A DNA stretch of 64,000 nt, from the NCBI GenBank assembly GCA_040772385.1, contig JAXGYF010000001.1, forward strand, positions 5,048,545 to 5,112,544. The letters are read 5' to 3'. The DNA comes from Candidatus Vecturithrix sp. Lineage in GTDB: Bacteria; Moduliflexota; Moduliflexia; Moduliflexales; Moduliflexaceae. Shown piece by piece: positions 39,101 through 61,094 of the stretch (positions are counted from its first letter, which is position 1; every line of letters starts with the position of its first letter). A program made the translations under genes and the position numbers. Below the pieces are notes generated by a model. The model ran no database searches, had not been told where the DNA came from, and worked only from the letters and a program-made list of their open reading frames with translations.

Positions 39101-39266
39101 GCCGCAAGTACGCAGCCTAATTCCTGTTGAACAAAGCCGCAGGGCGGCAGAAGAGTTTCGTGCTCCTCCCCACCATTTTTCTCTTGCCATGATCTGAACA
39201 GGTGTCATCCTCCTCCATGATGTATTCATCCTGCGTATGAACCTCATTCATCATGGAGGAGATACG

Positions 39267-40133
39267 ATGACCGCTCTGAGACACCGTTTCATTGAAGACC
39301 TGCAATTGCAGGGGAAGTCCGACCGGACGCAACAGGCCTACGTCCGCGCCGTGCGGATGCTGGCCGACCACTTCCACACCCCGCCGGATCAGCTCACCGA
39401 CGAGCAGATTCGGCAGTATTTCCTGTACGTCAAGAACACTCGACACTGGTCGTTTTCGACCATGAAACAGGCCCTGTGCGCTATCAAGACCTTGTATACG
39501 CAGACGCTGCACCGGGACTGGGGCATTCTGGACGTGATTCGTCCGCCGACATCGCAGACGCTGCCCGATGTCCTGACCCACGACGAGGTGCAGCGGCTGC
39601 TTCAGGCGGTGCGTCTGCCGCACTATCGGCTGTGCTTGACCACGATCTACTCGTGCGGATTACGCCTGACCGAAGGCGCCCAACTCCGGGTCACGGACAT
39701 TGACAGTGCCCGGATGCTCGTGCATGTGCGCCACGGGAAAGGGGACAAAGACCGCTATGTGCCGTTACCCCAACGTACCCTGGAGCTGCTGCGCCAGTAT
39801 TGGCTGACGCACCGCCATCCGGTGTGGCTGTTTCCGGCTGGCGGCGCTGGGCCGGTGCAGCGCCAGCCTGCTTCCGCCCCTCTCTCCGTCAGCACGCTGC
39901 AAAAAGCCTGTCGTCTCGCGAAGCAGGAGGCCGGGATCACCAAAACCGTCTCGGTCCACAGTCTGCGCCATGCCTATGCCACCCATCTGCTGGAAGCCGG
40001 CGTGAGCCTGCGCATGATTCAAGCCTATCTCGGACATACCTCTCCCCAGACCACGGCTCGTTACACGCATCTGACCTCCCAGGCGCAGACCAGCGCGGGC
40101 GTCGTCATTGACACCCTGATGCAGGATCTCTAA
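39267..40133 (+). CDS. Tyrosine recombinase (phage-integrase family) encoded upstream of the IS91-family transposase
   Basis: C-terminal catalytic region HSLRHAYATHLLEAGVSLRMIQAYLGHTSPQTTARYTHL. Such upstream recombinase genes occur in a subset of IS91-family members. Confidence 0.8.
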   Translation: MTALRHRFIEDLQLQGKSDRTQQAYVRAVRMLADHFHTPPDQLTDEQIRQYFLYVKNTRHWSFSTMKQALCAIKTLYTQTLHRDWGILDVIRPPTSQTLPDVLTHDEVQRLLQAVRLPHYRLCLTTIYSCGLRLTEGAQLRVTDIDSARMLVHVRHGKGDKDRYVPLPQRTLELLRQYWLTHRHPVWLFPAGGAGPVQRQPASAPLSVSTLQKACRLAKQEAGITKTVSVHSLRHAYATHLLEAGVSLRMIQAYLGHTSPQTTARYTHLTSQAQTSAGVVIDTLMQDL

Positions 40134-40154
40134 GCCCCTCATCGGAGGCCCGAG

Positions 40155-41291
40155 ATGCTGGAATTGGCTGACATCTTCCAGGCCTACGGTCCCGCGTATG
40201 AGGCGAAATACGGCGACCGCATGCCGCCCAGCCATCACGACGCGCTGTGGGACATCGCCCACTGCCGCACGCCCCTGATGGGGGGCGAGGTGTTCTGGTG
40301 TGCCCAGTGCCAGGACTTTGTCTACAGTTATCATTCCTGCGGCAACCGCCATTGTCCCAAATGCGGCGGTGACCGGGCCGACGCCTGGCGCGACGCCCAA
40401 CTCAAGAAGCTGCTCCCCGTGCCGTATTTTCTCGTGACGTTCACTCTGCCCCATTCCCTCAACGCCATCGCCCGTTCCCATCAACACGTGATCGATGACC
40501 TGCTCTTCAAAACGTCCGCGGATGCACTCCACACGCTCGCCTTGAATCCGGAGTGGCTCGGCGGCACGATTGGCATGGTGGGCGTCCTCCACACCTGGGA
40601 TCGGGCGATGGGCTATCACGTGCATGTCCATTATCTTGTGCCGGCCGGGGGGATCGATCCGGGCACCGGGGCCTGGATCCCCTCCCATCCGAAATTTCTC
40701 GTGCCCGCCTCGGCCCTGCGCGAGGTCTTCCGGGCCAAATTTCGCGACGCCCTGTACGCCGCCGATTCAGCCCTCTTCGCCCAGGTCCCGCCGGAGACCT
40801 GGAGCAAACAGTGGGTCGTGCACTGCAAGGCCGTCGGAGACGGACGCACGGCCCTGAAATACCTGGCCCCCTACGTCGCCCGCGTGGCCCTCTCGAATCG
40901 GCGACTGGTGACACTCGATGAGGGACAGGTCACGTTCCGCTATAAGCCCCACACGAGGCCCTGGACGACCATGACGCTCGACGTGATGAGCTTCATGCAG
41001 CGCTTCTTACAACACGTCCTGCCCAAAGGCTTCCAGAAAATCCGGTACACCGGCTTCCTGCACCCCAACGCCCGCACCATGTTCACGGCCCTACAAGCGC
41101 AGCTCGTCGCAGAGGCCGCCTCCGAGCGTCTGCCAGAGGTGCTGGCCGCCACGTTCGGCCTGGAGATCGGCAACGGGACGCCCAACGACGACCCGCCTGA
41201 CGACCCCCCGCGCGGTTGTCCGCACTGCGGTGGTCCGCTGGCCTTCGTCGGTCGCTTCCCTCGCGCCCCCCATCGACGAGGTCCTCCATGA
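40155..41291 (+). CDS. IS91-family transposase (N-terminal Zn-binding domain plus Y2 HUH transposase domain)
   Basis: CxxC...CxxC zinc-binding region (WCAQCQD...CGNRHCPKCG), an HUH-like HVHVHYLVP, and the catalytic Tyr region KYLAPYVARVALSNRRL. Confidence 0.8.
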   Translation: MLELADIFQAYGPAYEAKYGDRMPPSHHDALWDIAHCRTPLMGGEVFWCAQCQDFVYSYHSCGNRHCPKCGGDRADAWRDAQLKKLLPVPYFLVTFTLPHSLNAIARSHQHVIDDLLFKTSADALHTLALNPEWLGGTIGMVGVLHTWDRAMGYHVHVHYLVPAGGIDPGTGAWIPSHPKFLVPASALREVFRAKFRDALYAADSALFAQVPPETWSKQWVVHCKAVGDGRTALKYLAPYVARVALSNRRLVTLDEGQVTFRYKPHTRPWTTMTLDVMSFMQRFLQHVLPKGFQKIRYTGFLHPNARTMFTALQAQLVAEAASERLPEVLAATFGLEIGNGTPNDDPPDDPPRGCPHCGGPLAFVGRFPRAPHRRGPP

Positions 41292-41708: not shown

Positions 41709-44114
41709 ATGAATATACCACCAAGATTACAACATAGAATTGTTGATTTTCTTATATCTCTTCCGAGTATTCATGATAATAATAGTCAACGATCATTAAT
41801 CTACCAAGCCGGTCTAGATACAGAGTTACAAGGTCAGATTTCATTTGATAAACCAGCTATGCAGTTTGCCCTCTTCCTTGTGTCAACCTTAATAAAATAT
41901 GGTAAACTTAGTGATGGGCGATACGCTATTGAAGCTATTTTGGAGGCAGCAAAGAATTTTGTAGGACAAGATAGGAAAATATATTGTGAAACATTGATAA
42001 ATGAACTGCATGATTATACAATTGAAAAAGCTGATACACCATTATCAGATGATATCCCATTTTTAAAAAAGAGAAATTCTATAGTAGATGCTAAATACGA
42101 TCCCAAATTAGTCACAGAAATAAGGATAACTCCACCTGACTTGACTAATCAACAACAGTTACAAAATACTGGTGATAATTCTTTTGAGATAGATGCTTTT
42201 AAATCAAAGCTCTTAGATTATGAATTGAGTCAGTTAGGCTTACCTTCCTTGATTTTCCATCGGAACAATTTAGAAAGTGAGGGATTGCAGCTTATTCGTG
42301 AGGGTATTCTGCCTGTCATTTTGATTCAAGGTCTCCCTGGCTATGGAAAGACTGTATTGCTTGGTGAACTTGCCAAAAAGATTGGCCATGAATTTCAATA
42401 TACTTTGGTGTTAAATTTTTCTGGTCCAGCTTCTATAGAACCTTCTTATGTCATCGAAGAAATAAATACATTTCTCAATAAACTTGGCCGTGGTATTGAT
42501 ACAGAAATACTCAGAAAACAGAGTACTCAACGCTCTCTTCAAATTCTTATTCCTCAGATGATGGATCTACATCTTCTTCTACTTTTAGACGCAGTAGATG
42601 GTGTACCTCCTGGACAAATTGAAACATTTTTGCAATTCTTAACGGCAACCCCTAAAAATCGACTCATTATGACCGCTCGTTATAGAATCGTAAATAGGTC
42701 GAATGCTCATATATTACATGTGCCTCCATTATCGAACAAAGAAACTGCCGATTTTGTTGAACAGTATACTAAATCAATGAAGATCGGGGTTAATATAAAG
42801 GATTTATTGGAAAAACTCCCCAACAACATTAAAGAACATCCTCAAGCATTAAGCATGATTTTAGCAAATTTAGTTGATATTCCATTTGAACTTTTAGTAA
42901 TGCAAAGCTTCCATGACGATACATTAATCCTTCAACAGTTGGCTAAAAACATCCTTCTTGCTATAGATAAGGAAGTGTTGACTTGTTTAGTATTTATGAT
43001 AGTATTAGATGATCTTGACTTTATGGATACCCTTAAAATTTTAGAAATAAATCCTCCTAAAGGTCTGGTGAATTCTATTAATCTGTTATTGGAAAAGTCT
43101 TTGATTTATCGCCATGAAAATTCTTATCGTGTGCCTTCAATTATACATGAAGGGGTATTAAATTTAATTCCTGATATTGCAGAGACTATTCTAAATCAAA
43201 TAGGTTATATCTTAGAATTAAAAATCAACAGAATGCATTTACAAAGGGTATCAGATCATTTTGATAATCTTATTCCCATAGTTGTTACTATTATTCATCA
43301 TTTTTATCAAATGCGATCTTATGAATGGGTAACTAAACTTGTTATTGATGAATTCTTAGAATTTATCAATATGCGGGGTTTTTGGAAAGAATATTGGCTC
43401 ATTTTACGAATATCTTTTGATGCTGCAAAAAGAATAAACCAATTAAATATCTTTTCCAAAATAGGGTTTAGGATTGCTCGTAAATCTTTACAAATCCACG
43501 ATATTGATACTGGGAGTCAGGTATTAAGTGATGTGGAACGAGTTATTGGTGTTGATGGTAATACAATGGAGCATGCAGAATTTTGGAGTCATAAAGCTCT
43601 TTTCACCGAATTAACTGGATATACGGAGAATGCCAAAGAAGAACTACTGAAAAGTCTCCAAATTCGAGAATCGCTCTATGATGCTGAAGGTATTGCTGTT
43701 ATCCAAAAACTTTTAGGTAATATTCATTTGCGTTTAAAAGAATCAGATATAGCACGTCAATATTATGAGTCAGCATTGATATCTATCAATGAAAATACTT
43801 CCCAATTCAAACATATTATCGAAGTGGAAACGAGTCTCGCTTTGTGTGATCTGATAGATAATAAATTGGAATCGGCTGAATCCACACTTAGAAAAGTTAT
43901 TCAAAATTGTAAGAGTAAAGGCTATTTAGCTGGACTATCAAGAGCTTACTACAATTTGGCTTTAGTACTTGATCGTCAAAAACGTGTTGCTGAAGCTTTT
44001 TATTATGCTGAAATTGCTTCTAAGGAAGCTTTAAAAACAGATAAAGATATTATACTCGGTTCAGGAATACTTATGTGGCGATTAAAAAATTTAAAAGGAA
44101 CCTCTTGTAAATAA
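41709..44114 (+). CDS. STAND-class NTPase (NB-ARC-like P-loop) with an N-terminal alpha-helical adaptor/effector-associated-like domain and C-terminal TPR-like repeats
   Basis: Walker A LIQGLPGYGKTVLLGELAKK, Walker B HLLLLLDAVDG, a helical C-terminal half with TPR-like periodicity, and a 100-aa N-terminal helical domain. AT-rich at ~36% GC. Confidence 0.65.
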   Translation: MNIPPRLQHRIVDFLISLPSIHDNNSQRSLIYQAGLDTELQGQISFDKPAMQFALFLVSTLIKYGKLSDGRYAIEAILEAAKNFVGQDRKIYCETLINELHDYTIEKADTPLSDDIPFLKKRNSIVDAKYDPKLVTEIRITPPDLTNQQQLQNTGDNSFEIDAFKSKLLDYELSQLGLPSLIFHRNNLESEGLQLIREGILPVILIQGLPGYGKTVLLGELAKKIGHEFQYTLVLNFSGPASIEPSYVIEEINTFLNKLGRGIDTEILRKQSTQRSLQILIPQMMDLHLLLLLDAVDGVPPGQIETFLQFLTATPKNRLIMTARYRIVNRSNAHILHVPPLSNKETADFVEQYTKSMKIGVNIKDLLEKLPNNIKEHPQALSMILANLVDIPFELLVMQSFHDDTLILQQLAKNILLAIDKEVLTCLVFMIVLDDLDFMDTLKILEINPPKGLVNSINLLLEKSLIYRHENSYRVPSIIHEGVLNLIPDIAETILNQIGYILELKINRMHLQRVSDHFDNLIPIVVTIIHHFYQMRSYEWVTKLVIDEFLEFINMRGFWKEYWLILRISFDAAKRINQLNIFSKIGFRIARKSLQIHDIDTGSQVLSDVERVIGVDGNTMEHAEFWSHKALFTELTGYTENAKEELLKSLQIRESLYDAEGIAVIQKLLGNIHLRLKESDIARQYYESALISINENTSQFKHIIEVETSLALCDLIDNKLESAESTLRKVIQNCKSKGYLAGLSRAYYNLALVLDRQKRVAEAFYYAEIASKEALKTDKDIILGSGILMWRLKNLKGTSCK

Positions 44115-44123
44115 GGAGTATGT

Positions 44124-44342
44124 ATGTGGTTTCAAGAAAGTAGTGAGATTATCACTCGATTATTCAGTTTATCAATTTTGTACTATGAGGCTAGTGGTGA
44201 CGCTAATTGTAATTGGCGAGAATTGGACAAGCAACTCACAATAGAAAAAGAATTTCTTTTATCAAATGGTCATGATTTGATAGGAATAGATGCTATTTTT
44301 GAAGAAGTCAACATGATTATTGGGTTTATCCTAAGTAAATAA
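44124..44342 (+). CDS. Small hypothetical protein (72 aa) immediately downstream of the STAND NTPase
   Basis: An ORF tightly coupled to the STAND gene, starting 10 nt after its stop with a GGAG RBS. Confidence 0.35.
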   Translation: MWFQESSEIITRLFSLSILYYEASGDANCNWRELDKQLTIEKEFLLSNGHDLIGIDAIFEEVNMIIGFILSK

Positions 44343-44449
44343 ACTATAGCATTATTCATTCCCGTTGATCGTAACCCTGACAGGGTTCCAAACCCTGTCA
44401 GGGTTGTAAATGATCAATGTCGATGCATAATGCTATATTACGCTGAGAT

Positions 44450-46405
44450 ATGTGGAAAGAAGAGACGATAAATAAGCTTAAAATTCTTTTAGATGTTGCG
44501 AGAAGGGAGGTTCCTTATTATACAAGTATATTACCTCCAGTATCCATTCAATTACCGGATGATATTTTTGGTTACCTTAAAAATTTTCCTCTCCTTTCTC
44601 GTCAAATTTTGCAAACTCAAAAAGCACTATTATGTTCTTCACATGGAGATATATCTTCTTGGCGCAAAATACGAACCACAGGGACTACAGGTGAACCGGT
44701 AGAAGTTATTTTAAATAAAGAGACTTGGACACTTGAAAGTGAGTTGTTTGCCTCACATATAGATCGTTATTTACAACGCCTTGATTGGCATCAAAAAAAG
44801 ATATTTTATTTAAATCTACATCCTAGTGCAAGCTCCCGAACTCTTCCTTCTAAATGGCATGATGAAGCACAAATGATAAAATGGAATCTAATTCGAATTT
44901 GGCAATTATCTGATGAAAAATTTATGAATTCCATTGAATGCCTTAATGAAAGTATTATTACTACCATGGCTTCTGTCGTAGAACTCATTTGCTCTCGCAT
45001 ATTAAAATCAGGCATCATAAACAAAATTCATCCTTCCCTTATTGTTTTATCAGGAGAAACTATCCTTCCAGAGACAAGAATGCTTATAAACGAGGTGTTT
45101 AAATGTCCTGTTACCTCTCTCTATACAATGGCTGAGGTTGGAATTATTGGATCAGAACAAATAGATCCAAATGTTTATCAAGTAGAAGAATCTGCTGTAA
45201 TAGTAGAAATTGTTGACGAAAACGGTAATCGAGTTCCTCAAGGAATTGAAGGAGAGATTATTATTACCCCTTTAAACAATGTGGTAATGCCACTTATTCG
45301 GTATCGTACTGGAGATCGGGGTTATTGGGTTGACATTGATTCGTCTCCTCCAATTTTTAGATTAGTTGAGGCTCGCCGTTCCTATCACTTGATTACAGAA
45401 AATAATGCTTCGATGAACGTTGTTAGATTTACAAAGATGTTAGCTTCTCTCAATGTTGATCGTTATCGGATGGATCAGAAACAGGATGGGACTGTTATTT
45501 TCTCTTATTATTCTCAAAAGAGCGCATTTAGTGAAATGGACTATTCCCTTGTTAAATCAGTAATTCGTGGTGCCTTTGGTCCTGAAGTCAGGATAGAGTT
45601 TTATCAGGTTGAAGATCGTAACACTCTTAGTCAAGCTCCAGATCAGATTCAACCATCACGAGAATATATTACTTCTCCTAACGCGGAACCATTAGACCCG
45701 AGTTTAGTAAAATTAGCTTCTTGGCTTCGTCAACAATTATTTGATGAGATCCAGATAGATGCCGCTATTCTTACGGGCTCTGCCCTTGATCATAGGACAA
45801 CAACTCGTTTTAGCGATATTGACTTAGTAGTTTTAGTTCAGAATAATCCAATGGACTCTTATTGGATTAAGGTATCACGTAACCTTATATCTCATATTCC
45901 ACAGCTTTCCATAAATTTTGACTATATACGTGGTCTTTCATATCGCTCACCATTGCTTGCTTGTCGTTTATTATGTGAACAAATCCCAGTAATTGGTAAA
46001 GTAGATGAATATATTCTGCCATGGCCTAAACTGGAAAATTTACGACTTCAAGGATTATATTGGTCTCAAGATACTATCGGAACACTTTGGTTAAGGCTTG
46101 TAAATTTAAAAGTATTAAGTATGGATCCAATACGTGAGGCATGGATAGCTACAAAGCTTATTCTGGAGGCTCTTCGTTACCGTTATCTTGTTCGAAGTGA
46201 GCACGAGACATCATCTGTTTGCATATTAAATAAGCTAGAGAAAGATATTGAAATTCCGGATTTATGGAAAAGAGACTTATTTGACATGTTTAATGTTGCA
46301 AGAGAACATCTCCCTCCACCTCTCATTAATAGTAATATAGTTGAACATTATTTACAATTAGCTTTGTCATATATTCGTTTTATTCAGATTGACTTAATGC
46401 GATGA
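44450..46405 (+). CDS. Fusion protein: PaaK/F390-synthetase-like adenylate-forming enzyme (N-terminal ~430 aa) plus minimal Pol-beta-type nucleotidyltransferase domain (possibly followed by a HEPN-like helical region)
   Basis: ANL motifs IRTTGTTGEPVEV and IRYRTGDRGYW. A C-terminal GSALDHRTTTRFSDIDLVVLV minimal nucleotidyltransferase signature. The tail carries an RYLVRSEH R-x(4-6)-H-like motif. Confidence 0.6.
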   Translation: MWKEETINKLKILLDVARREVPYYTSILPPVSIQLPDDIFGYLKNFPLLSRQILQTQKALLCSSHGDISSWRKIRTTGTTGEPVEVILNKETWTLESELFASHIDRYLQRLDWHQKKIFYLNLHPSASSRTLPSKWHDEAQMIKWNLIRIWQLSDEKFMNSIECLNESIITTMASVVELICSRILKSGIINKIHPSLIVLSGETILPETRMLINEVFKCPVTSLYTMAEVGIIGSEQIDPNVYQVEESAVIVEIVDENGNRVPQGIEGEIIITPLNNVVMPLIRYRTGDRGYWVDIDSSPPIFRLVEARRSYHLITENNASMNVVRFTKMLASLNVDRYRMDQKQDGTVIFSYYSQKSAFSEMDYSLVKSVIRGAFGPEVRIEFYQVEDRNTLSQAPDQIQPSREYITSPNAEPLDPSLVKLASWLRQQLFDEIQIDAAILTGSALDHRTTTRFSDIDLVVLVQNNPMDSYWIKVSRNLISHIPQLSINFDYIRGLSYRSPLLACRLLCEQIPVIGKVDEYILPWPKLENLRLQGLYWSQDTIGTLWLRLVNLKVLSMDPIREAWIATKLILEALRYRYLVRSEHETSSVCILNKLEKDIEIPDLWKRDLFDMFNVAREHLPPPLINSNIVEHYLQLALSYIRFIQIDLMR

Positions 46406-46422
46406 GGTAAAGCAGAGAAAGG

Positions 46423-46534
46423 TTCTAACGATCTGCTTGCACCGGAGCGCAAAGGGCGGGCGGAAAAATGGGTTGCTGAATGTCGGGCTTGGGTGCCGCC
46501 CGCCCTTTCCGCCCGGTGAAGCAGGGCGTTCGGC
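46423..46534 (+). other. attC-like cassette recombination site (~110 bp): TTCTAAC ... GGGCGGGCGG ... CCGCCCGCCC ... GCAGGGCGTTCGGCG
   Basis: An imperfect inverted repeat with an RYYYAAC-like 5' end and a GTTCGGC 3' end. It sits immediately after the stop of the 44450-46405 gene. The same architecture recurs at 55512-55621, 59898-60008 and 61102-61215, and the 3' end alone matches at 63986-63992. Confidence 0.55.
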
Positions 46535-46564
46535 GTGTACGCTTTGTAGAAAAGGAACAAATCT

Positions 46565-47389
46565 ATGGATGCTAATAATGAAAAAATACAAGGCGAAGTT
46601 AAATGGTATGATCCTCATAAAGGATATGGGGTGCTTGTTGATGATAATCAAAATGAATATTTTATTCACCATACAAATCTAAGCTTTGAACAAAAACAAC
46701 TATTTGCCTTTGAGCGAGTCGCATTTCTCTTAAAACCACGACAACATGGTAAAGAAGGTCTTGAAGCATATGAGATAGATATACTCCCTCCATCCCCTGT
46801 CGAAGAAAACGATGAGCACTCGATTCGGGTTCAGGATATTCTACGCAAAATGCAAGGGTGGTTTAGAATGCGTGCTTCATTTCAACGAGAATATGCTGAA
46901 CAAAAAGCTAAATGGAATGTTTGGGATGATATGGCTGATGAATATATCGAATTTCAAGAACCATTGATACATATTCAGAATACATTTAATTTAGAAATGA
47001 TTCCTGCCCATCCTGACATAATCGCTAAAGCCTTTACTCCTGGGAATGATATGCCAGTTGGGGCGTTTACACGAGCAGTAGATATTGATGATTATGAAAG
47101 ACGTAGAGGAGTTTACGCCTGTATGGGAAATGATGAATTGATTCTTATTGTTCATGCGTTCTATAAAAGTCGTAAGACTCGCATAGATTGCTGGAGGGCT
47201 AAAATATTTCGTCGCAGAGATGGAAAGATTATCTCAATGCCTGATAAAGGAACATACACAGGACATTTCAAAAGAAATATCTGGAGAGAGCGGTTTGATT
47301 ATTTTTTACAGGATATTCAGCATATGATGGCAATAGCGACACGAAACAGAATGAGTACAAACGATATGGATATAAATGATCTTTTTTAA
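46565..47389 (+). CDS. Cold-shock-domain protein with a C-terminal extension of unknown function (274 aa)
   Basis: The N-terminal GEVKWYDPHKGYGVLVDDNQNEYFIHHTNL matches CspA-type RNP1/RNP2 motifs. The remaining ~200 aa are unassigned. Confidence 0.6.
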   Translation: MDANNEKIQGEVKWYDPHKGYGVLVDDNQNEYFIHHTNLSFEQKQLFAFERVAFLLKPRQHGKEGLEAYEIDILPPSPVEENDEHSIRVQDILRKMQGWFRMRASFQREYAEQKAKWNVWDDMADEYIEFQEPLIHIQNTFNLEMIPAHPDIIAKAFTPGNDMPVGAFTRAVDIDDYERRRGVYACMGNDELILIVHAFYKSRKTRIDCWRAKIFRRRDGKIISMPDKGTYTGHFKRNIWRERFDYFLQDIQHMMAIATRNRMSTNDMDINDLF

Positions 47390-49281: not shown

Positions 49282-51300
49282 CTTAATAAAATCTAATAAT
49301 GGTGAATTTCAAGATTTTGATACAAAACATCATCCAATCCTAATCTGTTCAAGATCTCTTTTTGGAGTTCTGATAGAGGCGTAAGATGACGGATTATGTG
49401 ATCCTTCAGATGAATAATTGTCAGGGTAATCCCCTCAAATGCCTTCAGCAACCGTTCGCTGGTCGGCCTGTTAGTGGTCTTTCGTATATTCTCAGGATGC
49501 AATCCTGGGAAAGCCTTCTTTTCCCGCTCTAATGAACGTCTTACAACAAACTCGATACGCGTTAACGTTCGAACTCCCAATGTCAATAAGTGGTTTAAGC
49601 CTTTGACTTGATCCGGTTCCGTCACATACATCGGAGCAATATTCAAACGGTTTTTGAGACGATCGAAGAGCCGTTCAATTCGACATTCTTGCCGGTATAA
49701 TCGTACCGCATCTTCCAAACATCACCTGTCACCGGACGTATCAGTCACGTAGGCTCTCCACCCGAACGGCTCCTTGACGTGCTCAATCTTCGCGGCATCC
49801 CGGGTAACAGCCGTGATGTGATAGCGAATGCTTTCGACCACCTCTTGTTGACGATTCGCCCCTCCTCGGCCTCGGCCCCTGTATTTCGTTGTACGCTCAA
49901 CTTCGCGTTCATACTCAACACGAAGCAGACCGTCAACCCGATGCTGCTTCTCAATCGCCTCAATGGCAGCCTTCAAACTCTGCTCATCGGTTATCTGTTT
50001 TTTCCCTCGGCCACGCGGCGGGGTAAGGGCATACAGTTTCTGCTCGGCCTGGTCCAAACGGGTATCGAACCCACGTTCCTGCTGCCCGGCATGATTGAAG
50101 GACTTGACGACCAACACCCGTTCAGTCCATTCAAGCGTCTGGCCGTTGACCACCCCGGAGCACCGACGTTCAACCTCATACCCTGCGGCCACGATGGCCT
50201 CTTCACCGTTGGCATCTGTGACCACCACAGGTTGAAGGGCTTTCTCCTTTTCCAGGGCAATACCGTCTCGAACCCACTCTGCCATCACTTCCGGCGTCTT
50301 CCCGGTTTGAGGCAGAGGGCAAAGATAATGACCGCCCAGCCCTTTAATATGCAAACGCGTCTCAATGGCACTGAGCTTGCAATCGCCAACATAGAGAACG
50401 CCCTGTCTCTCAAGGACGGCATGAATGCGATTAATCACCGGAACATATAAGCCGTCATCCGCACGCTCGCCTGACACGACATCGGTCGCTAGCGGCATAC
50501 CAAGCGGATCAAGTGCCCCTGTCATGAGCTTGATGTGAGGTAAACTCGGGTCGTCTTTACTATGACCGAATTGAAAAAGACCTCCCTCCCTCACCTCATG
50601 GTAGCCCGAAACCGTCGTCGCGTCACACCTAACGACATCCGTTTCTAAATCATAGGCACGGATGCTCTTCTGATTTAGCTCGGCCTCGATCGGTTCCCAA
50701 TACGACGGCTTGCTCAAGTTCTTCAGCAAAATACCCAGGCGGTCATCCGTAAAATCAAGCTCCCTGACAGTTTGGCCACTCACCGTGCTCAACGTCTGCT
50801 CCAGGTTCTTCACATACTGCCTGACGACGACTTTTCGATGATCGCCCTCAGAAAGAATATAGGCTAACCAGATCACCGCTGTCCAGCCCCAGCTTAATTC
50901 ACGCTGTTTCCAATGGACCGGAATATGGTTGTCGAGAACCTCAGGTAAGCCCATCTGAACCAGCACTCCAATGATTAACACAATATCATCGACCCGCTCT
51001 GAGCGAATCTCGAAGTCTTTTCTTGACTCAACGTGCTCTTTTGTTAACATACGCCTCTATACCTCCTGTGATTTTTTTCTATCATCGCCTCACAGAGGGG
51101 CATATTGCGCAAATTAAATTTTACCTGTCAAAATAAAGCGAATGATGAGTGATAATAATATTGATAAGAAGTTAACTCAAATTCCTATTTTTGTGCCTTT
51201 AAGAAGCTTTGCTGAGTCAGGCTTATCCCTATTTGAATTCATTGTTCGCCAGTTTAAAATTTGTAATTTCCCTGATGCTGGCCCTTTTATTGAAACGATC
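49282..51300 (-). mobile_element. IS1634/IS4-like insertion sequence inserted in the NACHT gene; its transposase reading frame carries an in-frame TGA
   Basis: ORFs 49722-51050 and 49293-49718 are in the same frame, separated by the TGA at 49722-49724. Together they give a ~585-aa DDE transposase-like protein (C-terminal ...GWRAYVTD and ...YRQECRIERLFDRLK). The element boundaries are approximate. Confidence 0.55.
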
Positions 51301-52274
51301 TTGAGAAAAAGAGGTAATTTTAAGCTAACACCTCAGGTTTTCGCTCGACTGAAAGAGAACAATTTACCTAAGAAATATCTGAGTAAATTAAAAAATTTGG
51401 AAAATAAAGAATTCTCTACTGAAGAAGAGCTTTTTACTAATGTCCAAACATTTGTAGATGATAATAAAATTTTTGAAGAATATAAGGCATTATTTTTGCG
51501 ATACGCAAAAAACGAAAAGTGGAAAACTATTATTTTATGTGATGGATTAGATGAAGTTCCTAAAAAAGAAGACAAACGACAGAAAATTATTCAAGAATTA
51601 ATTGATTTCAGTAATGAATTTGAGGAAAGTCAGTTTGTTATCACATGTCGTATTGCTGCCTCAGAATATCATTTTGAAGGTTTTACCTATGTTGAAATTG
51701 CAGATTTTGATGAAAAACAAATTGCCTCTTTTATTAGGAATTGGTTTATGAATAGTTCTTCATTGGCGAACAATTTTCTCGAAGAGTTTGGGAAAATTGG
51801 TAATGAACGACTTCGTGATCTTGCTAGAACCCCTCTGATTCTTACACTTTTATGTATTTCTTATGAGAACACTCTTGAACTACCAATTCGACGCTCAGAA
51901 ATTTATAAAGAGGCTCTTGATGCATTATTGGTGAGATGGAGTGCTACTCGGGGAATTAAACGAGATGAAATATATAACCATTTATCTCTTGGCAGAAAAC
52001 AACAAATGTTTGCCCGTATTGCTGCGGAGACTTTCCAAAAGAGTCAGTATCTCATTAAACAAGAAGTTCTGGAAGAAAAAATTATTAAGTATTTAAGAAA
52101 TTTACCGCAAGTAAGTATGGATGAAGAGATTAATGGAACAGCAATTCTTAAAGCTATTGAATCCCAACATGGGATTTTTGTTGAGAGAGCCCAGGGCATT
52201 TACTCATTTTCTCATCTAACCTTTCAAGAATATTATGCCGCAAAATATATTTATGAACACCTTGATAAAGATAT
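51142..52274 (+). pseudogene. C-terminal fragment of the NACHT NTPase gene (Walker B ILCDGLDEV, TCR sensor, TPLILTLLC), truncated at its 3' side by IS91-family copy 2
   Basis: The 51142-52341 ORF lacks a Walker A motif. Its last residues (...LNKAAGRQKSFASLPTIFLLP) are encoded by the IS91-like left end. Confidence 0.6.
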
Positions 52275-52415
52275 GTTGAACAAAGCCGCAGGGCGGCAGA
52301 AGAGTTTCGCGTCCCTCCCCACCATTTTTCTCTTGCCATGATCTGAGGCGGTGTCATCCTGCTCCATGATGTATTCATGAGATCTCTGAACCTCTTTCAT
52401 CATGGAGGCCCTCCT

Positions 52416-53282
52416 ATGACCGCTCTCAGACACCGATTCATCGAAGACCTGCAGTTGCAAGGCACGTCTGACCGGACGCAACAGGCGTACGTCCGCGCGG
52501 TGCGGATGCTCGCCGAACACTTTCACACCCCGCCGGATCAGCTCACGGACGAGCAGATTCGGCAGTATGTCCTGTACGTCAAAAACACCCGACACTGGTC
52601 GTGTTCGACCATGAAACAGGCCCTCTGCGCCATCAAAACCTTCTACACCCAGACCGTACACCGGGAGTGGGGTCTGCTGGACGTGATTCGCCCGCCAAAA
52701 TCGCAGACCCTGCCCGATGTCCTGACCCACGACGAGGCGCAACGACTGCTTCAGGCGGTGCGCCTGCCGCACTACCGGCTGTGCTTGACGACCATCTACT
52801 CGTGTGGCTTGCGCCTGACTGAAGGCGCCCAGCTCCGGGTGACAGACATCGACAGCGCCCGGATGCTCGTGCATGTCCGCCGCGGCAAAGGGGACAAAGA
52901 CCGGTATGTGCCCCTCCCACAGCGCACCCTGGAACTCCTGCGCCAGTATTGGCTCACGCACCGCCATCCAATCTGGCTCTTTCCGGCCGGTGGGGCCGGC
53001 CCGGTGCAGCGTCACCCCGCCTCGACGCCCATCTCCGTGAGCACGCTGCAAAAAGCCTGTCGCCTCGCGAAGCAGGAGGCGGGCATCACCACACGGGTGT
53101 CGGTCCACAGTCTGCGCCATGCCTACGCCACCCATCTGCTGGAAGCCGGGGTCAGCCTGCGGATGATTCAAGCGTATTTGGGACATACGTCGCCCCAAAT
53201 CACGGCCCGTTACACCCATCTCACCTCCCAGGCCCAGACCAGCGCGGGCGCCGTCATTGACGAGCTGATGCAGGATCTGTAA
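52416..53282 (+). CDS. Tyrosine recombinase of IS91-family copy 2
   Basis: Paralog of the 39267-40133 gene. Confidence 0.8.
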   Translation: MTALRHRFIEDLQLQGTSDRTQQAYVRAVRMLAEHFHTPPDQLTDEQIRQYVLYVKNTRHWSCSTMKQALCAIKTFYTQTVHREWGLLDVIRPPKSQTLPDVLTHDEAQRLLQAVRLPHYRLCLTTIYSCGLRLTEGAQLRVTDIDSARMLVHVRRGKGDKDRYVPLPQRTLELLRQYWLTHRHPIWLFPAGGAGPVQRHPASTPISVSTLQKACRLAKQEAGITTRVSVHSLRHAYATHLLEAGVSLRMIQAYLGHTSPQITARYTHLTSQAQTSAGAVIDELMQDL

Positions 53283-53309
53283 CCCTCCACACATCTTAGG
53301 AGGCAACGG

Positions 53310-54446
53310 ATGCTGGAATTGGCCGACATCTTTCAGGAATATGGCCCTGCGTATGAGGCGACGTACGGCGACCGCATGCTGCCCAGCCACCGGGATGCGC
53401 TGTGGGATATCGCCCACTGCCGCACGCCTCTGATGGGGGGCGAGGTGTTCTGGTGCGAGCACTGCCAGGATGTTGTGTACAGCTACCACTCCTGCGGCAA
53501 CCGCCATTGTCCGAAATGCGGCGGCGACCGGGCCGATGCCTGGCGCGACGCCCAACTCAAGAAGCTGCTGCCCGTCCCCTATTTTCTCGTGACCGTCACC
53601 TTGCCCCATGCCCTGAATCCGATGGCGCGATCGCACCAGCAGCTCGTCTATGATCTGCTGTTCAAAACATCGGCGGACGCGCTCCAGACCCTGGCCCTGA
53701 ATCCAGAGTGGCTCGGCGGCACGATTGGCCTGGTGGGCGTCTTACACACCTGGGATCGGGCGATGGGGTATCACGTGCATGTCCACTATCTTGTCCCAGC
53801 CGGCGGGATCGATCCGGACACCGGAGCATGGATGCCGTCGCATCCGAAATTCTTGGTCCCCGCTTCGGCCCTGCGGGAGGTCTTCCGGGCGAAATTCCGC
53901 GACGCTCTGCACGCCGCCGATCCGGCCCTCTTCGCGCAGGTCCCACCCGAGACCTGGAGCAAACAGTGGGTGGTGCACGGCAAGGCCGTCGGAGACGGAC
54001 GCACCGCCCTGACATATCTGGCCCCCTACATTGCCCGCGTCGCCCTGTCCAATCGGAGACTGGTCGCCCTGGAAGCCGGGCACGTCACGTTCCGCTATAC
54101 GCCGCGCACGAAGCCCTGGAGGACCATGACGCTCGACGTCATGCGCTTCATGCAGCGCTTCTTACAGCATGTGTTGCCCAAAGGCTTCCCAAAAATCCGG
54201 TATACCGGCTTCCTGCACCCCAACGCCCGGACCACGCTGGCGGCCCTCCAGGAGCAGCTCGCCACAGAGGCCGCTGACGAACGCCTGCCAGCGGCGTTGG
54301 CGGCCACCTTCGGTCTGCAGATTGGCGCCAGCGCGTCCGACGACGCCCCCCCTGACGAGACGCCACGCTGTTGTCCGCACTGCGGCGGGCCGCTGGCCTT
54401 CATCGGCCGCTTCCCGCGATCCCCTCATCGCCGAGGTCCCCCATGA
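53310..54446 (+). CDS. IS91-family transposase, copy 2
   Basis: Paralog of the 40155-41291 gene. Confidence 0.8.
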   Translation: MLELADIFQEYGPAYEATYGDRMLPSHRDALWDIAHCRTPLMGGEVFWCEHCQDVVYSYHSCGNRHCPKCGGDRADAWRDAQLKKLLPVPYFLVTVTLPHALNPMARSHQQLVYDLLFKTSADALQTLALNPEWLGGTIGLVGVLHTWDRAMGYHVHVHYLVPAGGIDPDTGAWMPSHPKFLVPASALREVFRAKFRDALHAADPALFAQVPPETWSKQWVVHGKAVGDGRTALTYLAPYIARVALSNRRLVALEAGHVTFRYTPRTKPWRTMTLDVMRFMQRFLQHVLPKGFPKIRYTGFLHPNARTTLAALQEQLATEAADERLPAALAATFGLQIGASASDDAPPDETPRCCPHCGGPLAFIGRFPRSPHRRGPP

Positions 54447-55778: not shown

Positions 55779-56087
55779 ATGAATATACTACAACAAATAC
55801 CTTGGCTTGAGATAGGGCTATATTTTAGCATGATAATGGGTATGGCCGCCAAATATCTCTATGATGAACTTAGTTTAGTCAAAAGAAAAAAGTTCAGGTT
55901 CCGTAAGTGGCAATTTCTTCGACCTATTATCATTTCTCCAATTGTGTTTGGGGTAATTTATGGTCTTACTGATGAGACTACTTCTCCTATACTCCTATTC
56001 ATGTTTTCTTTTCAAAATGGTTTCTTTTGGCAAACAATTTTAAATAAACCTGAAACAAGAGATTCAAGTAACTTTGATGCTTTCTAA
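55779..56087 (+). CDS. Small integral membrane protein (3 predicted TM helices)
   Basis: Hydrophobic segments LEIGLYFSMIMGMAAKYLY, IISPIVFGVIYGL and ILLFMFSFQNGFFW. It overlaps the start of the next gene. Confidence 0.45.
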   Translation: MNILQQIPWLEIGLYFSMIMGMAAKYLYDELSLVKRKKFRFRKWQFLRPIIISPIVFGVIYGLTDETTSPILLFMFSFQNGFFWQTILNKPETRDSSNFDAF

Positions 56088-56109
56088 AACTTCTATGAGG
56101 GTGAATACA

Positions 56110-56988
56110 ATGCCAATAATTCCAATACCTTATCATTTCAGTACAACAATCACACAAAAGGATCTATTCATTAACCGGAAAAATGATATTGGTAAAATTG
56201 TTCGAGCATTATCTGGATTTCAGATGAACAACATTTCTGTCATTGGCGAAAGGAAAATAGGAAAATCTTCGTTGCTTTATTATATTTCGAAGTATGAAGA
56301 ATTGCCAGATATAAAGACAGTATTCTTCGATTTTCAAAATAAAGCTGAAGCAAAGATTTTTTATGAACAAATTTGCTCAGAACAAATTACGGATTCTTCA
56401 CAAAAAATAGCGTATTTTCTTGATGAACTTGAATCCGCCTCAAGCTTCGGAGAAACTTTTTTTAAAAAGTTACGCTCTGTTGCCAATAAACCTAATATTG
56501 CGTTAGTTACAGCATCAAGAGCCCCACTATCTACAATTTGTCCCGAGTTTTCTGATGATTCCTCTCCCTTTTATAATATTTTTGTTCCACAAAGTTTAAC
56601 GAATTTTTCTAAGGAGGATACTATCGAACTAATAACAGAAACACCAAAAAGAGTGGGATTGAAACTAAAGCCCGAACAATTTTTTACTCATGACGAAATT
56701 AGATTAATTGTTAAACTCTCAAATTGCCACCCATGGAAGATTCAACTCTACAGCTACTATTTCTTTGAAGCAAAAGTCAACAATATCATCGAAAAAAATG
56801 AAGTTAAGCTGCAAATTAGAGAGGCTTTAAAAATGCAAAGTGGGCAAAAAGAATTGCTGCCCGTCTTAAATTCAGATATTGATATTAGAGAAGTTCTGTC
56901 TACAGATGTTAGCCCTTTGATAAAAAATCTTTTCCAGTTTTTGATCGAAATAGCAACTGAATATGCCACGAAAAAATATATCGGCTAA
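56110..56988 (+). CDS. P-loop ATPase of the Arch_ATPase / AAA-like family
   Basis: FINRKNDIGKIVRAL...VIGERKIGKSSLLYYI (Walker A) and IAYFLDELE (Walker B). The start could be the upstream Met at 56074. Confidence 0.5.
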   Translation: MPIIPIPYHFSTTITQKDLFINRKNDIGKIVRALSGFQMNNISVIGERKIGKSSLLYYISKYEELPDIKTVFFDFQNKAEAKIFYEQICSEQITDSSQKIAYFLDELESASSFGETFFKKLRSVANKPNIALVTASRAPLSTICPEFSDDSSPFYNIFVPQSLTNFSKEDTIELITETPKRVGLKLKPEQFFTHDEIRLIVKLSNCHPWKIQLYSYYFFEAKVNNIIEKNEVKLQIREALKMQSGQKELLPVLNSDIDIREVLSTDVSPLIKNLFQFLIEIATEYATKKYIG

Positions 56989-57022
56989 ACTTCCTTATAT
57001 GTTAAACATATTCAATCCATAA

Positions 57023-57233
57023 TTGTGATGTGAAGGCACATCGTGGAGTGTTTTGGTGAAAGCACTCCATAAAAATTGAAAAAGGATGTACTGCAATCAC
57101 ATCGTAGCCTATTATGATCCTGTTTTTTCGTAATATGGCGTTTTTTCAGATAAGCTGCTGATACGCCGACTCTACGAAGTGCTTGCACGAATGTAGTAAA
57201 TCATCCTAAGCTACGATGTGCCTTCACATCACA
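57023..57233. repeat. MITE-like ~210-bp element bounded by perfect 20-bp terminal inverted repeats GTGATGTGAAGGCACATCGT / ACGATGTGCCTTCACATCAC
   Basis: A perfect 20-bp inverted repeat at 57023-57042 and 57214-57233. A third partial copy, CACATCGTAGC, lies inside. Confidence 0.55.
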
Positions 57234-57254
57234 CATAATAATATTCATATAATT

Positions 57255-58835
57255 ATGATCTCGTTAAATAAAGTACTAGAGCTTCTTGGAATTATCAAGC
57301 AATTGCGTTCATGTGAAACATTAGCGGAAATTGCTAAACAAGAGGATAATTTACAGAAAGCAAGTGTAGGGTTACTATTCAAGAAAGAACTAAATACATT
57401 ACGAAAGATTGTTGCCGATATTAACAAGTTTTTGACAGTCAGCAACAAGATTGAGAAGCATGAGCTATTAGAAGAAATAGTTGCTTTAATCGAAGGAACT
57501 GAATATTATCTAAACCCTAAGTTGGCTGGTGTAATTTATGGACTGATTTATCTTGTAATTTTTGTTGTATTGGCTAGTATAACTATAACTCCATTTCAAG
57601 CGATTATTATCGTTTTTTCATTAGGAGTTTTATCCTATTTTTCGATGGGATTCATTTATACGCTTTACATATTCCCCTTCTATAATAAAAGCTTATCTTT
57701 GATCTTGAAGGAAGAAGAATTACTTATTGCTTCTTTAAATATCAAACACATCCCGAACAATTATATAGTAGGACCTCCTATTCGGCCTGGAAAACATAAT
57801 CTGTTCGTTGGGAGGGAGTTAATTTTTAGGAGGATTTTGGGGTTATTAGAGAATCAATTTGATAAACCATCTATTATTCTACACGGGCAACGAAGAATGG
57901 GCAAAACCTCAATACTATATCACATAGAAGACTATTTCAAAAACTCCTCTACTAAATTTAATATTATCACAATATTGGCCGATATGCAATCTGTTACGCA
58001 AGTCAAAAATGTAGGTGAGTTTCTTTATAATGTCTGTCGAATAATTCGAAATACAGTAAGTAAATATGGAGTAATGGTAGAACTCCCCACTGTTGAATCT
58101 TTTGAAAAACGACCGTTTCTTAGATTTGACGAGTTTTTGGATGAATTAACTAAGCTCATATCTCCGTATAGTTACATCTTTTTAATGTTAGATGAATTCG
58201 AGGAAATAGAGTATAAAATAAAGCAAGGTATCTTTCAAAAAAATCTGCTGGAAGAATTTCGAAGTATAATGCAACATCGAGAAAAGCTGTTCCTAATTTT
58301 TTCAGGTTCACATGCTTTGAATGAGATGTGCAAAGATTTTTGGTCTCCATTTTTCCACATAGCAGAGCCTATTAAAATAGGGTATTTATCTGACGAAGCT
58401 GCAACAAGACTGATAACCACTCCATGGGAGAATTTTCCCATTAGCTATGAGTTAGCCGCAGTGAAGGAAATTATGCGAATTACCGGCAATCAACCGATGC
58501 TAATTCAGGTTATTTGTCGTACACTCATAGATCAAATGAATGAACAGTTGGATTCACAACAAATTCTTCCATATAAGTTTCCAAAACTTAGAATCCAAAA
58601 TGTACATGAGGCGATTGGGCAAAGTCTGACTGGAAGTTATTATTTTGAGGCAATGTGGAACAGTTTGGAGAAATCAGAGCAAATGCTATTAACAAATATG
58701 GCAAGAGGGAAGGAAGAGACATCTCAGAATATTGACGATGATGTAGTACATTCGCTTCAAAAAAAGGAATTGCTGACCAATGATAATAAATACAGAATTC
58801 CCTTGTTGCATGATTGGATTCGAGAGAATAAATAG
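57255..58835 (+). CDS. Membrane-anchored P-loop ATPase (N-terminal TM helices plus Arch_ATPase/AAA-like domain)
   Basis: LFVGRELIFRRILGLLE...ILHGQRRMGKTSILYHI (Walker A), IFLMLDEFEE (Walker B), and TM helices at about residues 90-150. Confidence 0.5.
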   Translation: MISLNKVLELLGIIKQLRSCETLAEIAKQEDNLQKASVGLLFKKELNTLRKIVADINKFLTVSNKIEKHELLEEIVALIEGTEYYLNPKLAGVIYGLIYLVIFVVLASITITPFQAIIIVFSLGVLSYFSMGFIYTLYIFPFYNKSLSLILKEEELLIASLNIKHIPNNYIVGPPIRPGKHNLFVGRELIFRRILGLLENQFDKPSIILHGQRRMGKTSILYHIEDYFKNSSTKFNIITILADMQSVTQVKNVGEFLYNVCRIIRNTVSKYGVMVELPTVESFEKRPFLRFDEFLDELTKLISPYSYIFLMLDEFEEIEYKIKQGIFQKNLLEEFRSIMQHREKLFLIFSGSHALNEMCKDFWSPFFHIAEPIKIGYLSDEAATRLITTPWENFPISYELAAVKEIMRITGNQPMLIQVICRTLIDQMNEQLDSQQILPYKFPKLRIQNVHEAIGQSLTGSYYFEAMWNSLEKSEQMLLTNMARGKEETSQNIDDDVVHSLQKKELLTNDNKYRIPLLHDWIRENK

Positions 58836-60044: not shown

Positions 60045-61094
60045 ATGAGAATATTTGGCATTGACGATGATGGAACATTCAAAGAATATGGAGAAATACC
60101 ATTCCAACAGGAACATACAGAAGCTCTACTTGAGAGTTGGTTAGAAGCCAATCCCCAAAATATTCTTGAAGACGGTAATTTGCTCATTATTGGGCGACAA
60201 GTGACCACAAATTTAGGTAGTGTCATTGATTTGCTCGGTATTGACCGACAAGGCGATCTCGTCGTCCTTGAATTAAAACGGGATCGAACCCCGCGAGAAA
60301 CGCTTGCGCAAGTTTTAGAGTATGCCTCTTTTGTAGAAGAACTCGGAGCTGAACAATTAGAAACCATTCTACGAAACTATCTCAACGACGAATCTATCAG
60401 TTTAGCCGAATACCATCAACAGTATTTCACCATTGCCCCAGAAGAAGCGGTCGTCTTGAACAATGATCAGCGATTAGTCATTGTCGGTCAGCGTATCACC
60501 GAAGACATCCTGCAAACAGCCCTATTTTTACGGAAAAAAGGCCTACGTGTCACCTGTTTAGAATTCTCATTTTTCAAAACAGCCGAAGGGCTGAAACTTC
60601 TCTCATATGATATTGTGGTTGGCAGAGAGACTTACAACGTCAAACAAATTGCGTCAGGAGCCTTACCAATCATCTCACGGGAGGCATTTCTGGCCTCTTT
60701 AGATGATACCGGACGAGAGGTCTTTCAAACGATTTTAACCTATGCTGATGAGGAAGCCTTACCCATTCATTGGGGGAGTAAGGGATTTTCGCTCAATGTT
60801 GATAAGCATGGGATGCATGTGGCTATTTGCTTTGGCTATCCTCCGCATTCCGTCTATAAACAATCATTATATACAGCGCTTGTTGGACGAGGCGGGTTAC
60901 TCAGTAAACTCACTATCCCTGAAGAACAGATCACGCAATTATGGCAAAAAGCGGAATCTACCGGGTTATTTCAACGTGCTGGAAAAGAATTAAAATGTGT
61001 ACTTGACAAAGAGTTCTCACACGAGCAAATCAAGGTCATCGTAGCATGGCTGAAAGATGTTGTCGCAATGGTTCAACAATATGAGACGAAGTGA
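60045..61094 (+). CDS. PD-(D/E)xK nuclease-superfamily protein (NucS/DUF91-like N-terminal domain) with a C-terminal extension
   Basis: GSVIDLLGIDRQGDLVVLELKRDRTPRETLAQVLEYASF contains the D...E-L-K catalytic triad typical of restriction-endonuclease-like folds. Confidence 0.5.
   Translation: MRIFGIDDDGTFKEYGEIPFQQEHTEALLESWLEANPQNILEDGNLLIIGRQVTTNLGSVIDLLGIDRQGDLVVLELKRDRTPRETLAQVLEYASFVEELGAEQLETILRNYLNDESISLAEYHQQYFTIAPEEAVVLNNDQRLVIVGQRITEDILQTALFLRKKGLRVTCLEFSFFKTAEGLKLLSYDIVVGRETYNVKQIASGALPIISREAFLASLDDTGREVFQTILTYADEEALPIHWGSKGFSLNVDKHGMHVAICFGYPPHSVYKQSLYTALVGRGGLLSKLTIPEEQITQLWQKAESTGLFQRAGKELKCVLDKEFSHEQIKVIVAWLKDVVAMVQQYETK

Follow-up and report, generated by a model that had tools for sequence, protein, structure and literature searches.

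What does a protein that carries two different ATP-using enzymes in a single chain do, and why does its gene lie behind that of an NLR-like receptor? This question is raised by a locus of Candidatus Vecturithrix sp., contained in a 64,000-nucleotide stretch of contig JAXGYF010000001.1 (positions 5,048,545 to 5,112,544, forward strand) that was analysed as a whole and that we call the window; coordinates below count from its first letter. The locus comprises gene 1, encoding a STAND (NLR-like) NTPase, gene 2, encoding a small three-helix protein, and gene 3, whose open reading frame (ORF), checked in the window, occupies 44450..46405 on the + strand, is open for 651 codons and encodes 651 amino acids. 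It is practically certain that gene 3 encodes a real and conserved two-enzyme protein. A search of 5.8 billion proteins returned about 50 full-length homologues of 636-658 amino acids with 33-52% identity, and since these have the same architecture, the joining of a ligase to a nucleotidyltransferase (NTase) is neither a chance event nor an assembly artefact.

Motifs and structure model agree in showing, within this one chain, a predicted PaaK/CapK-type acyl-adenylate-forming domain and a predicted complete AadA-like two-domain O-nucleotidyltransferase. The AlphaFold2 (AF2) model has a mean predicted local distance difference test score (pLDDT) of 90.4 and a predicted template-modelling score of 0.87, and both halves are modelled with confidence. 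From N to C-terminal, the protein (all parts on the + strand) is composed of a PaaK-type ANL adenylate-forming core with motifs A3, K144-W-N146, A5 and A7 (residues 1-295, 44450..45334), a small ANL C-terminal subdomain with the A8 hinge R309 and an invariant K329 (residues 300-390, 45347..45619), a variable inter-enzyme linker with a pLDDT of 52-63 and unconserved columns (residues ~395-415, 45632..45694), a Pol-beta-fold NTase domain with a Polbeta match and a conserved metal site (residues 419-515, 45704..45994), and a helical bundle that completes the AadA/KNTase-like two-domain NTase (residues 528-650, 46031..46399). The fusion of an ANL-superfamily adenylating domain with an NTase, proposed in the preliminary description of this DNA, is thus upheld by about 50 homologues, invariant motifs and a confident model; the boundary given there, with the ANL part reaching about residue 430, has to be moved back to near residue 390. 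The same description took the architecture to be new, and this agrees with the literature: full-text searches, including surveys of STAND proteins, found neither a PaaK/ANL-NTase fusion nor a STAND accessory of this type described. The annotation of homologues goes no further than "phenylacetate-CoA ligase family" or "hypothetical", and one automatic JGI annotation (P0042) names both domains.

The N-terminal half displays the ANL fold. In the alignment of 39 sequences from which all conservation counts for the gene 3 family are taken, the A3 P-loop T76-T-G78-T-T-G-E-P83 has G78 in 39/39 and both T76 and P83 in 38/39; in A5, Y225 is found in 38/39 and E229 in 39/39; Y285 and D289 of A7 (Y285-R-T-G-D289) and the hinge R309 of A8 are each found in 39/39. 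Both motifs singled out in the preliminary description, TTGTTGEP (residues 76-83) and YRTGD (residues 285-289), are therefore present, although the label A8 attached to the second was wrong, YRTGD being motif A7 in the usual (Marahiel) ANL numbering. Residues 6-295 match PaaK-like ligases (NCBIfam DVU_1553, E=7e-31; PaaK, ~5e-8; Pfam AMP-binding, 4e-5), and none of the curated cut-offs is reached (AMP-binding 23 vs 29.9 bits, PaaK TIGR02155 31.8 vs 646.3, DVU_1553 107 vs 300). Of the PaaK/CapK/LuxE branch to which this half had been assigned, the PaaK/CapK likeness is retained by models and motifs, but as a divergent clade below these cut-offs and not as a PaaK orthologue. Its closest structural relatives are ClxA and NatL2. 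A scan of genomes with the generic PaaK peptide MPL[IL]RYx[TI]GD had ordinary PaaK-like genes among the matches listed.

The preliminary description had raised the prospect of an inactive ligase lacking the catalytic Lys, and the canonical A10 Lys is indeed absent, whereas the other active-site motifs are kept. When the family was aligned with stand-alone PaaK/CapK-like relatives (2y27 serving for the comparison with PaaK), all of the latter ended in [SGN]GK[FYL][RK] immediately behind the final strand of the cap subdomain. At the homologous site, the fusion family continues into a variable, disordered linker, and 36 of its 39 members are without G[KR] in that segment. The one protein that seemed to carry such a ligase on to an NTase, L012, was rejected as a stand-alone 491-residue CapK-like ligase with a normal A10 motif, located in a glycosyltransferase cluster. 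Two Lys remain invariant in the ANL half, K144 of the family-specific K144-W-N146 and K329 of the cap subdomain, and judging by the alignment either could have replaced the lost residue. The opposite possibility is that the ANL half has lost catalysis and serves for ligand binding or as a scaffold, leaving the NTase as sole catalytic centre. It draws on the loss, at the homologous site, of a motif that all stand-alone relatives keep and on the description of the A10 Lys as crucial for phosphate recognition in ClxA and NatL2 (PMC12519233). We consider it unlikely, and it is compatible with the role for the enzyme that we propose below.

In the second half, the metal site reads L-T-G443-S444-x11-D456-I-D458-L, with G443, S444, S455, D456 and D458 invariant in 39/39, and has the form h-G-[GS]-x9-13-D-h-[DE]-h of the Pol-beta superfamily. 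The GS...DhD signature reported in the preliminary description is thus present and invariant, with a spacer of x11 rather than the x9 stated there, still within the accepted x9-13. With the A3 P-loop and this site, the enzyme keeps what its motifs show to be two intact predicted nucleotide-binding sites. Pfam Polbeta matches residues 433-508 of the gene 3 product weakly (E=9.5e-5). Across the family, profile models do not place the region outside the NTase fold, Polbeta being matched by 20/24 members (best 3.5e-8) and NTP_transf_2 by 8/24. Profile comparison also gave weak matches to MNT/MntA and ANT(4') structures. A candidate third carboxylate, D491, is Asp in 29/39 aligned sequences and Ser, Thr or Gln in the others.

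The NTase alpha/beta domain is followed by a helical substrate-binding domain, and the two superpose jointly on AadA as a single two-domain enzyme, with 13% identity; R506, E510, K569, R576, Y577, E619 and P622-P623 are invariant or nearly so. The tail, on this modelled superposition, is best described as the second domain of an ANT/KNTase-type enzyme. It had been described before as possibly HEPN-like, within a picture of a free-standing enzyme derived from an MNT-HEPN module, whose activity on a protein or nucleic acid would be tandem adenylation or nucleotidylation. This picture has in its favour a real and invariant GS...DxD site, weak matches to MntA and MNT structures, and a tail that is an all-helical bundle. 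However, no alignment position has the HEPN motif Rx4-6H in more than 3/39 sequences, no HEPN domain is matched in Pfam, NCBIfam or PADLOC, and the MntA model NF047752, which matches only residues 433-472, stays at 16.7 bits where the cut-off is 60. A HEPN partner gene is lacking, the joint superposition on AadA speaks for one enzyme, and the gene is never free-standing, being tied to the STAND gene and the small protein at 14/14 loci. With the missing Rx4-6H, the sub-cut-off MntA score and the lack of a HEPN partner gene, an MNT-HEPN toxin-antitoxin is not supported, and we rate an origin of gene 3 in such a module as highly improbable.

A separate observation concerns a comparatively close stand-alone copy of the second half. 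In L096 (1..1480), a 253-residue NTase-plus-tail protein with 37% identity to residues 419-642 has no ANL domain upstream and is preceded by a fragment with 'VVFNSCYS', resembling a CHAT-type catalytic motif.

Such copies are exceptional. In an exhaustive search of 1.84 billion cluster representatives, a profile of the C-terminal module (C-module) retrieved 77 proteins at E<=1e-3 and 54 at <=1e-30, nearly all of them the ~640-residue fusion or its fragments; the rest are a few distant stand-alone NTase-plus-tail proteins of 240 residues and one distant truncated fusion. The latter, P0176 (439 amino acids), matches the C-module profile with E=1.6e-6 and has the divergent metal site 'LFGS...VDVDLLVV', which suggests that fusions of this kind reach back further, or are more widespread, than the core family. 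The full-length homologues come from Streptomyces, Micromonospora, Saccharopolyspora and many metagenomes, and a metagenome scan yielded 5 loci. No relatives were found on viral contigs, and sequenced plasmids and phages gave ANL-only matches, none covering >=80% of the query, and no full-length fusion. Each half belongs to a known superfamily yet stands outside the named families (the PaaK equivalog, MntA and the resistance ANTs).

The genomic context is the central result. The order STAND, small ORF, fusion, on one strand and with tight or overlapping spacing, is found in 14/14 loci, a count covering all homologue loci whose upstream sequence is long enough: the window, L001, L082, L083/84, L085/86, L087, L088, a JGI contig, L090, L091, L092, L094, L095 and L097. 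These come from Actinomycetota (Streptomyces, Micromonospora, Saccharopolyspora), from a genome with Por_Secre_tail neighbour genes, and from metagenomes. In the window, all three genes are intact. Gene 1 (41709..44114, +; 801 amino acids), delimited by Pfam domains and orthology, is composed of an EAD8 head (residues 7-100, 41727..42008; Pfam EAD8, E=1.3e-22), an NB-ARC/NACHT P-loop NTPase (residues ~195-384, 42291..42860; NB-ARC 8e-7, NACHT 2.5e-6) and C-terminal TPR-type repeats (residues ~607-790, 43527..44078; TPR_12 4e-9), all on the + strand. It therefore has the P-loop NTPase, the C-terminal repeats and the N-terminal effector or adaptor domain by which a STAND protein is defined. Its core (residue 173 to the end) is orthologous to the STANDs encoded 5' of the fusion homologues, with 37% identity over 618 amino acids in L083 and 28% over 603 in a Streptomyces locus, and the enzymes of the same pairs are 39% and 33% identical, so that STAND cores and enzyme diverge in step. 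The Walker A motif GLPGxGKT is invariant among the STANDs.

The head of the STAND varies: it is TIR_2 in most loci, EAD8 in the window and EAD7 in L094, and it is missing in L095, where a CHAT gene follows the fusion. TIR-headed cassettes occur, for instance, in Streptomyces cyaneofuscatus and Micromonospora humida. According to PMC7159879 and PMC8195603, either TIR or an EAD can occupy the effector slot in NTPases of this type. Comparison of the loci shows a constant trio of STAND core, small protein and enzyme, on which the head is interchangeable. No second EAD8 copy is present in the 64-kb window, and the effector recruited by the EAD8 head of gene 1 should be encoded elsewhere. With regard to mean column identity, the enzyme (51%) is better conserved than the STAND (38%) and the small protein (35%), as would be expected of a fixed chemistry and less of a receptor or effector that diversifies. 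Gene 3 is, in our judgement, very probably a dedicated component of the STAND cassette.

Could the enzyme instead be an ordinary secondary-metabolite or antibiotic-modifying enzyme that merely neighbours the STAND gene? Relatives of each half do occur in natural-product biosynthesis and aminoglycoside resistance, and stand-alone ANL relatives lie in polysaccharide clusters. Against this stand the conserved three-gene order across distant lineages, with its overlapping or tight spacing and gene fusions linking the parts, the lack of conserved biosynthetic genes around gene 3, and a C-terminal module almost never found outside the fusion. We consider a coincidental neighbour even less credible than the MNT-HEPN derivation, and both are essentially excluded.

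Genes just 3' of the cassette vary: they include the CHAT protease of L095 (5213..5992), a second small TIR protein in L085 (12406..12915) and, on the opposite strand just downstream of the cassette in L082 (12021..12776), an MBL-fold protein matching Anti-Pycsar Apyc1.

The small protein provides the physical link between receptor and enzyme in the reading that we favour. Gene 2 (44124..44342, +) encodes 72 amino acids, recognised by a conserved motif and an AF2 model of a three-helix bundle (pLDDT 81.5; helices 7-25, 31-47 and 52-71). The motif, F44-x-x-[ST]-[NST]-G49-[HLY]-D51-[LIV], lies in the loop between helices 2 and 3 and the following N-cap, at the same position in all loci examined, and F44, G49 and D51 are the only invariant residues. 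Its family is likewise rare, with 21 homologues found, all of them unnamed, and a fold search with the model returned generic bundles only, with no carrier-protein or ubiquitin-like fold. In L088 (Saccharopolyspora), the small protein forms the C-terminal extension of a 959-residue STAND, whereas in P0027/L097 it forms the N-terminal extension of a 783-residue enzyme, giving a two-gene cassette. These fusions to the C-terminus of the STAND on one side and to the N-terminus of the enzyme on the other suggest that the small protein bridges both.

By analogy with other STAND systems, we propose that the gene 3 product serves a three-gene STAND (NLR-like) conflict or immune cassette as its constant enzymatic subunit, acting on the input side, a proposal that we hold to be evenly balanced between right and wrong. 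The small protein would serve as an adaptor and hold the enzyme at the sensor end of the STAND, which is its C-terminus; if so, the enzyme would for that reason belong to the input side of the switch and would not be a killing module. Using ATP, the ANL site would adenylate a carboxylate, K329 perhaps standing in for the lost A10 Lys, and the NTase site would transfer a nucleoside monophosphate to a hydroxyl. The acceptor could be a small ligand bound at the sensor, or the adaptor or STAND itself, and the presence or absence of the covalent mark or product would set oligomerisation of the STAND and firing of its head, a TIR NADase in most lineages and, in the window, an EAD8 expected to recruit its effector from elsewhere. 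Indeed, both halves most resemble small-molecule-modifying enzymes, namely PaaK, the ClxA amide/ester ligase and AadA (PMC12519233). Input-side gating by the enzyme, taken by itself, we place at even or slightly below. In its fullest form the proposal is distinctly tentative: an NLR-like receptor controlled by a dedicated bifunctional ATP-using enzyme, tethered to the sensor end by the three-helix adaptor, which may place an acyl or nucleotidyl mark on adaptor or receptor, or may convert an infection-derived metabolite into an activating ligand, with K329 as a non-canonical catalytic Lys.

The enzyme might also act on the output side, as a second toxic or antiviral effector switched on by the STAND, for example by attaching a nucleotidyl or acyl group to an essential metabolite or to a macromolecule of host or phage, such as a tRNA or protein. 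Other conflict systems employ Pol-beta NTases as toxins or effectors. The effector heads listed in PMC8195603 include an NTase domain; the NTase site is invariant; and CHAT is met twice, beside the stand-alone NTase module of L096 and after the fusion in L095. However, a variable effector slot (TIR or EAD) already exists at the N-terminus of the STAND while the enzyme never varies, its conservation is unlike that of typical fast-evolving effectors, and the small protein is joined to the C-terminus of the STAND and not to its head. We regard an effector role as improbable, to about the same degree as the loss of catalysis in the ANL half considered above. Somewhat less probable again is a signal synthase that follows the CD-NTase/SMODS logic. 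The product of the enzyme would then be a diffusible small molecule, such as a nucleotide messenger or a conjugate derived from an acyl-adenylate, by which the STAND or an effector at a distance is activated. The presence of two ATP-using sites in a single chain and the resemblance of both halves to small-molecule enzymes agree with it, as do weak matches of CBASS cyclase models to the GS...DxD region (NCBIfam E=0.012, PADLOC E=0.04, and 2e-4 for P0028). Membership of the CD-NTase/CBASS cyclases themselves was rejected, these matches being marginal and local and AadA being structurally the better match.

Several observations weigh against an input-side enzymatic subunit, and they should be set beside it. 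No defence-system library recognises the cassette, and its immune role is argued by analogy: PADLOC gives TIR-domain-level or marginal matches for the STAND and none for the enzyme or the small protein, neither gene 1 nor gene 3 is matched by a system model of NCBIfam, and by both libraries the cassette fits none of the named systems (Avs1-5, bNACHT, EruA and others). Each of the two small-protein fusions is known from one contig or cluster, and a frameshift or an error in gene calling could have produced it. The small protein is without invariant Ser, Thr or Tyr, which makes it a weaker candidate as nucleotidylation target. In the enzyme, D491 is replaced in 10/39 sequences, and the missing A10 Lys means that the ANL half could, by its sequence, be a non-catalytic ligand-binding domain. 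Finally, the L096 copy indicates that the NTase module can work outside the cassette.

The locus in the window has features of its own. The 107-nucleotide spacer between genes 2 and 3 (44343..44449) is filled by a long near-perfect hairpin of about 93 nucleotides (~44345..44437; -53.8 kcal/mol, z=-9.95 vs shuffles), which holds the tandem palindromes AACCCTGACAGGGTT and AACCCTGTCAGGGTT, found nowhere else in the window. At the other loci with gene coordinates, the gap from the small ORF to the fusion ranges from overlapping starts to ~80 nucleotides, with 163 in L094. Rfam gave no match above noise for the hairpin, and promoter and terminator scans found sites no more frequently than in shuffled sequence. 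The hairpin probably represents a palindromic element that was inserted at this locus only, and it could affect the coupling of genes 2 and 3. Immediately 3' of the fusion lies a second long hairpin, G+C-rich within the low-GC island (46406..46564; AAAGGGCGGGCGG...CCGCCCGCCCTTT; -71.4 kcal/mol, z=-4.08), with a sub-threshold match to Rfam CRISPR-DR23 (22.5 vs 45 bits); it may be a terminator or the end of a repeat element. The following gene (46565..47389) encodes a 274-residue protein whose N-terminal part is a cold-shock domain (Pfam CSD, 1.7e-6), the ~200 C-terminal residues being uncharacterised; it has weak matches to the retron Se72 effector and to PADLOC CSD_V, and is not kept beside the cassette elsewhere.

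At a larger scale, the cassette lies in a low-GC patch (33-35% vs ~48-50% in the flanks). This patch is part of a region rich in mobile elements (36-64 kb), where tyrosine recombinases, two nSTAND2 proteins and a truncated NACHT protein are also encoded, while the first 36 kb of the window (1-36 kb) hold ordinary metabolism genes. Two similar units in the same orientation (39237..41291 and 52377..54446), each with a tyrosine recombinase (298 and 301 amino acids, respectively) and an IS91-type Y2 transposase (378 amino acids each), bracket ~11 kb including the cassette, which suggests a composite-transposon-like arrangement. The NACHT fragment (51142..52341; 399 amino acids) is EruA-like in NCBIfam (E=6.6e-11, positions 60-310 of a 1318-position model) and appears truncated at the start of the second unit. 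A second low-GC patch (33%; 56074..58835) carries two adjacent ORFs matching Novel STAND NTPase 2 (nSTAND2) plus AAA, followed by a NucS-like ORF (60045..61094); the nSTAND2 pair and the NucS-like ORF are further conflict-system content of the same island.

Bacteria, plants and animals all depend on STAND/NLR-type receptors as a central part of innate immunity. To our knowledge, the bacterial ones that have been characterised sense invader proteins directly, and a clade that always comes with an adenylating or nucleotidylating enzyme and an adaptor suggests another input logic, such as enzymatic gating, guarding of a modification state, or metabolite sensing. If an enzyme-controlled NLR-like receptor is confirmed, it would be a new way to couple small-molecule or post-translational chemistry to NLR-type sensing. 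The enzyme also combines domains in a new way, one chain holding two different chemistries of the form "X + ATP gives X-AMP", and an ANL domain without the textbook catalytic Lys but with all other active-site motifs is a useful test case for the ANL mechanism. The family is rare yet spread across Actinomycetota, a Por_Secre_tail-encoding lineage and the present genome, and its Streptomyces homologues make it experimentally tractable.

How, then, does this rare and apparently undescribed three-gene cassette compare with known systems? With respect to PaaK/CapK-type ligases, including the CoA-independent amide/ester ligases ClxA, NatL2 and AjiA1, gene 3 differs by the missing A10 Lys, the invariant and family-specific K144-W-N and K329, the absence of an N-terminal PF27533-type extension, the covalent joining to an NTase, and a context that is a STAND cassette and not catabolism or biosynthesis. 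Compared with AadA (aminoglycoside (3'')(9) adenylyltransferase) and the ANT/KNTase types, its NTase has the low identity given above and no matches to resistance-family models, sits behind an ANL domain rather than in a resistance cassette, and has a variable third carboxylate. With MntA-HepT (type VII toxin-antitoxin) it shares a minimal-NTase-like metal site and weak MntA matches and, by analogy, a proposed logic in which covalent nucleotidylation may restrain a dangerous partner; unlike MntA-HepT, the cassette lacks a HEPN toxin, the Rx4-6H motif and a separate small MNT, and the partner is a STAND NTPase with a three-helix protein. Architecturally, the cassette is of the STAND/NLR kind, represented by Avs, bNACHT, TIR-STAND and the EAD-coupled systems of Kaur et al. 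2020/2021 (PMC7159879, PMC8195603), with which it shares the P-loop NTPase, the C-terminal TPR, the TIR/EAD slot and a location in a mobile, STAND-rich island. What sets it apart from the described STAND systems that we found is its constant PaaK-NTase enzyme and three-helix adaptor.

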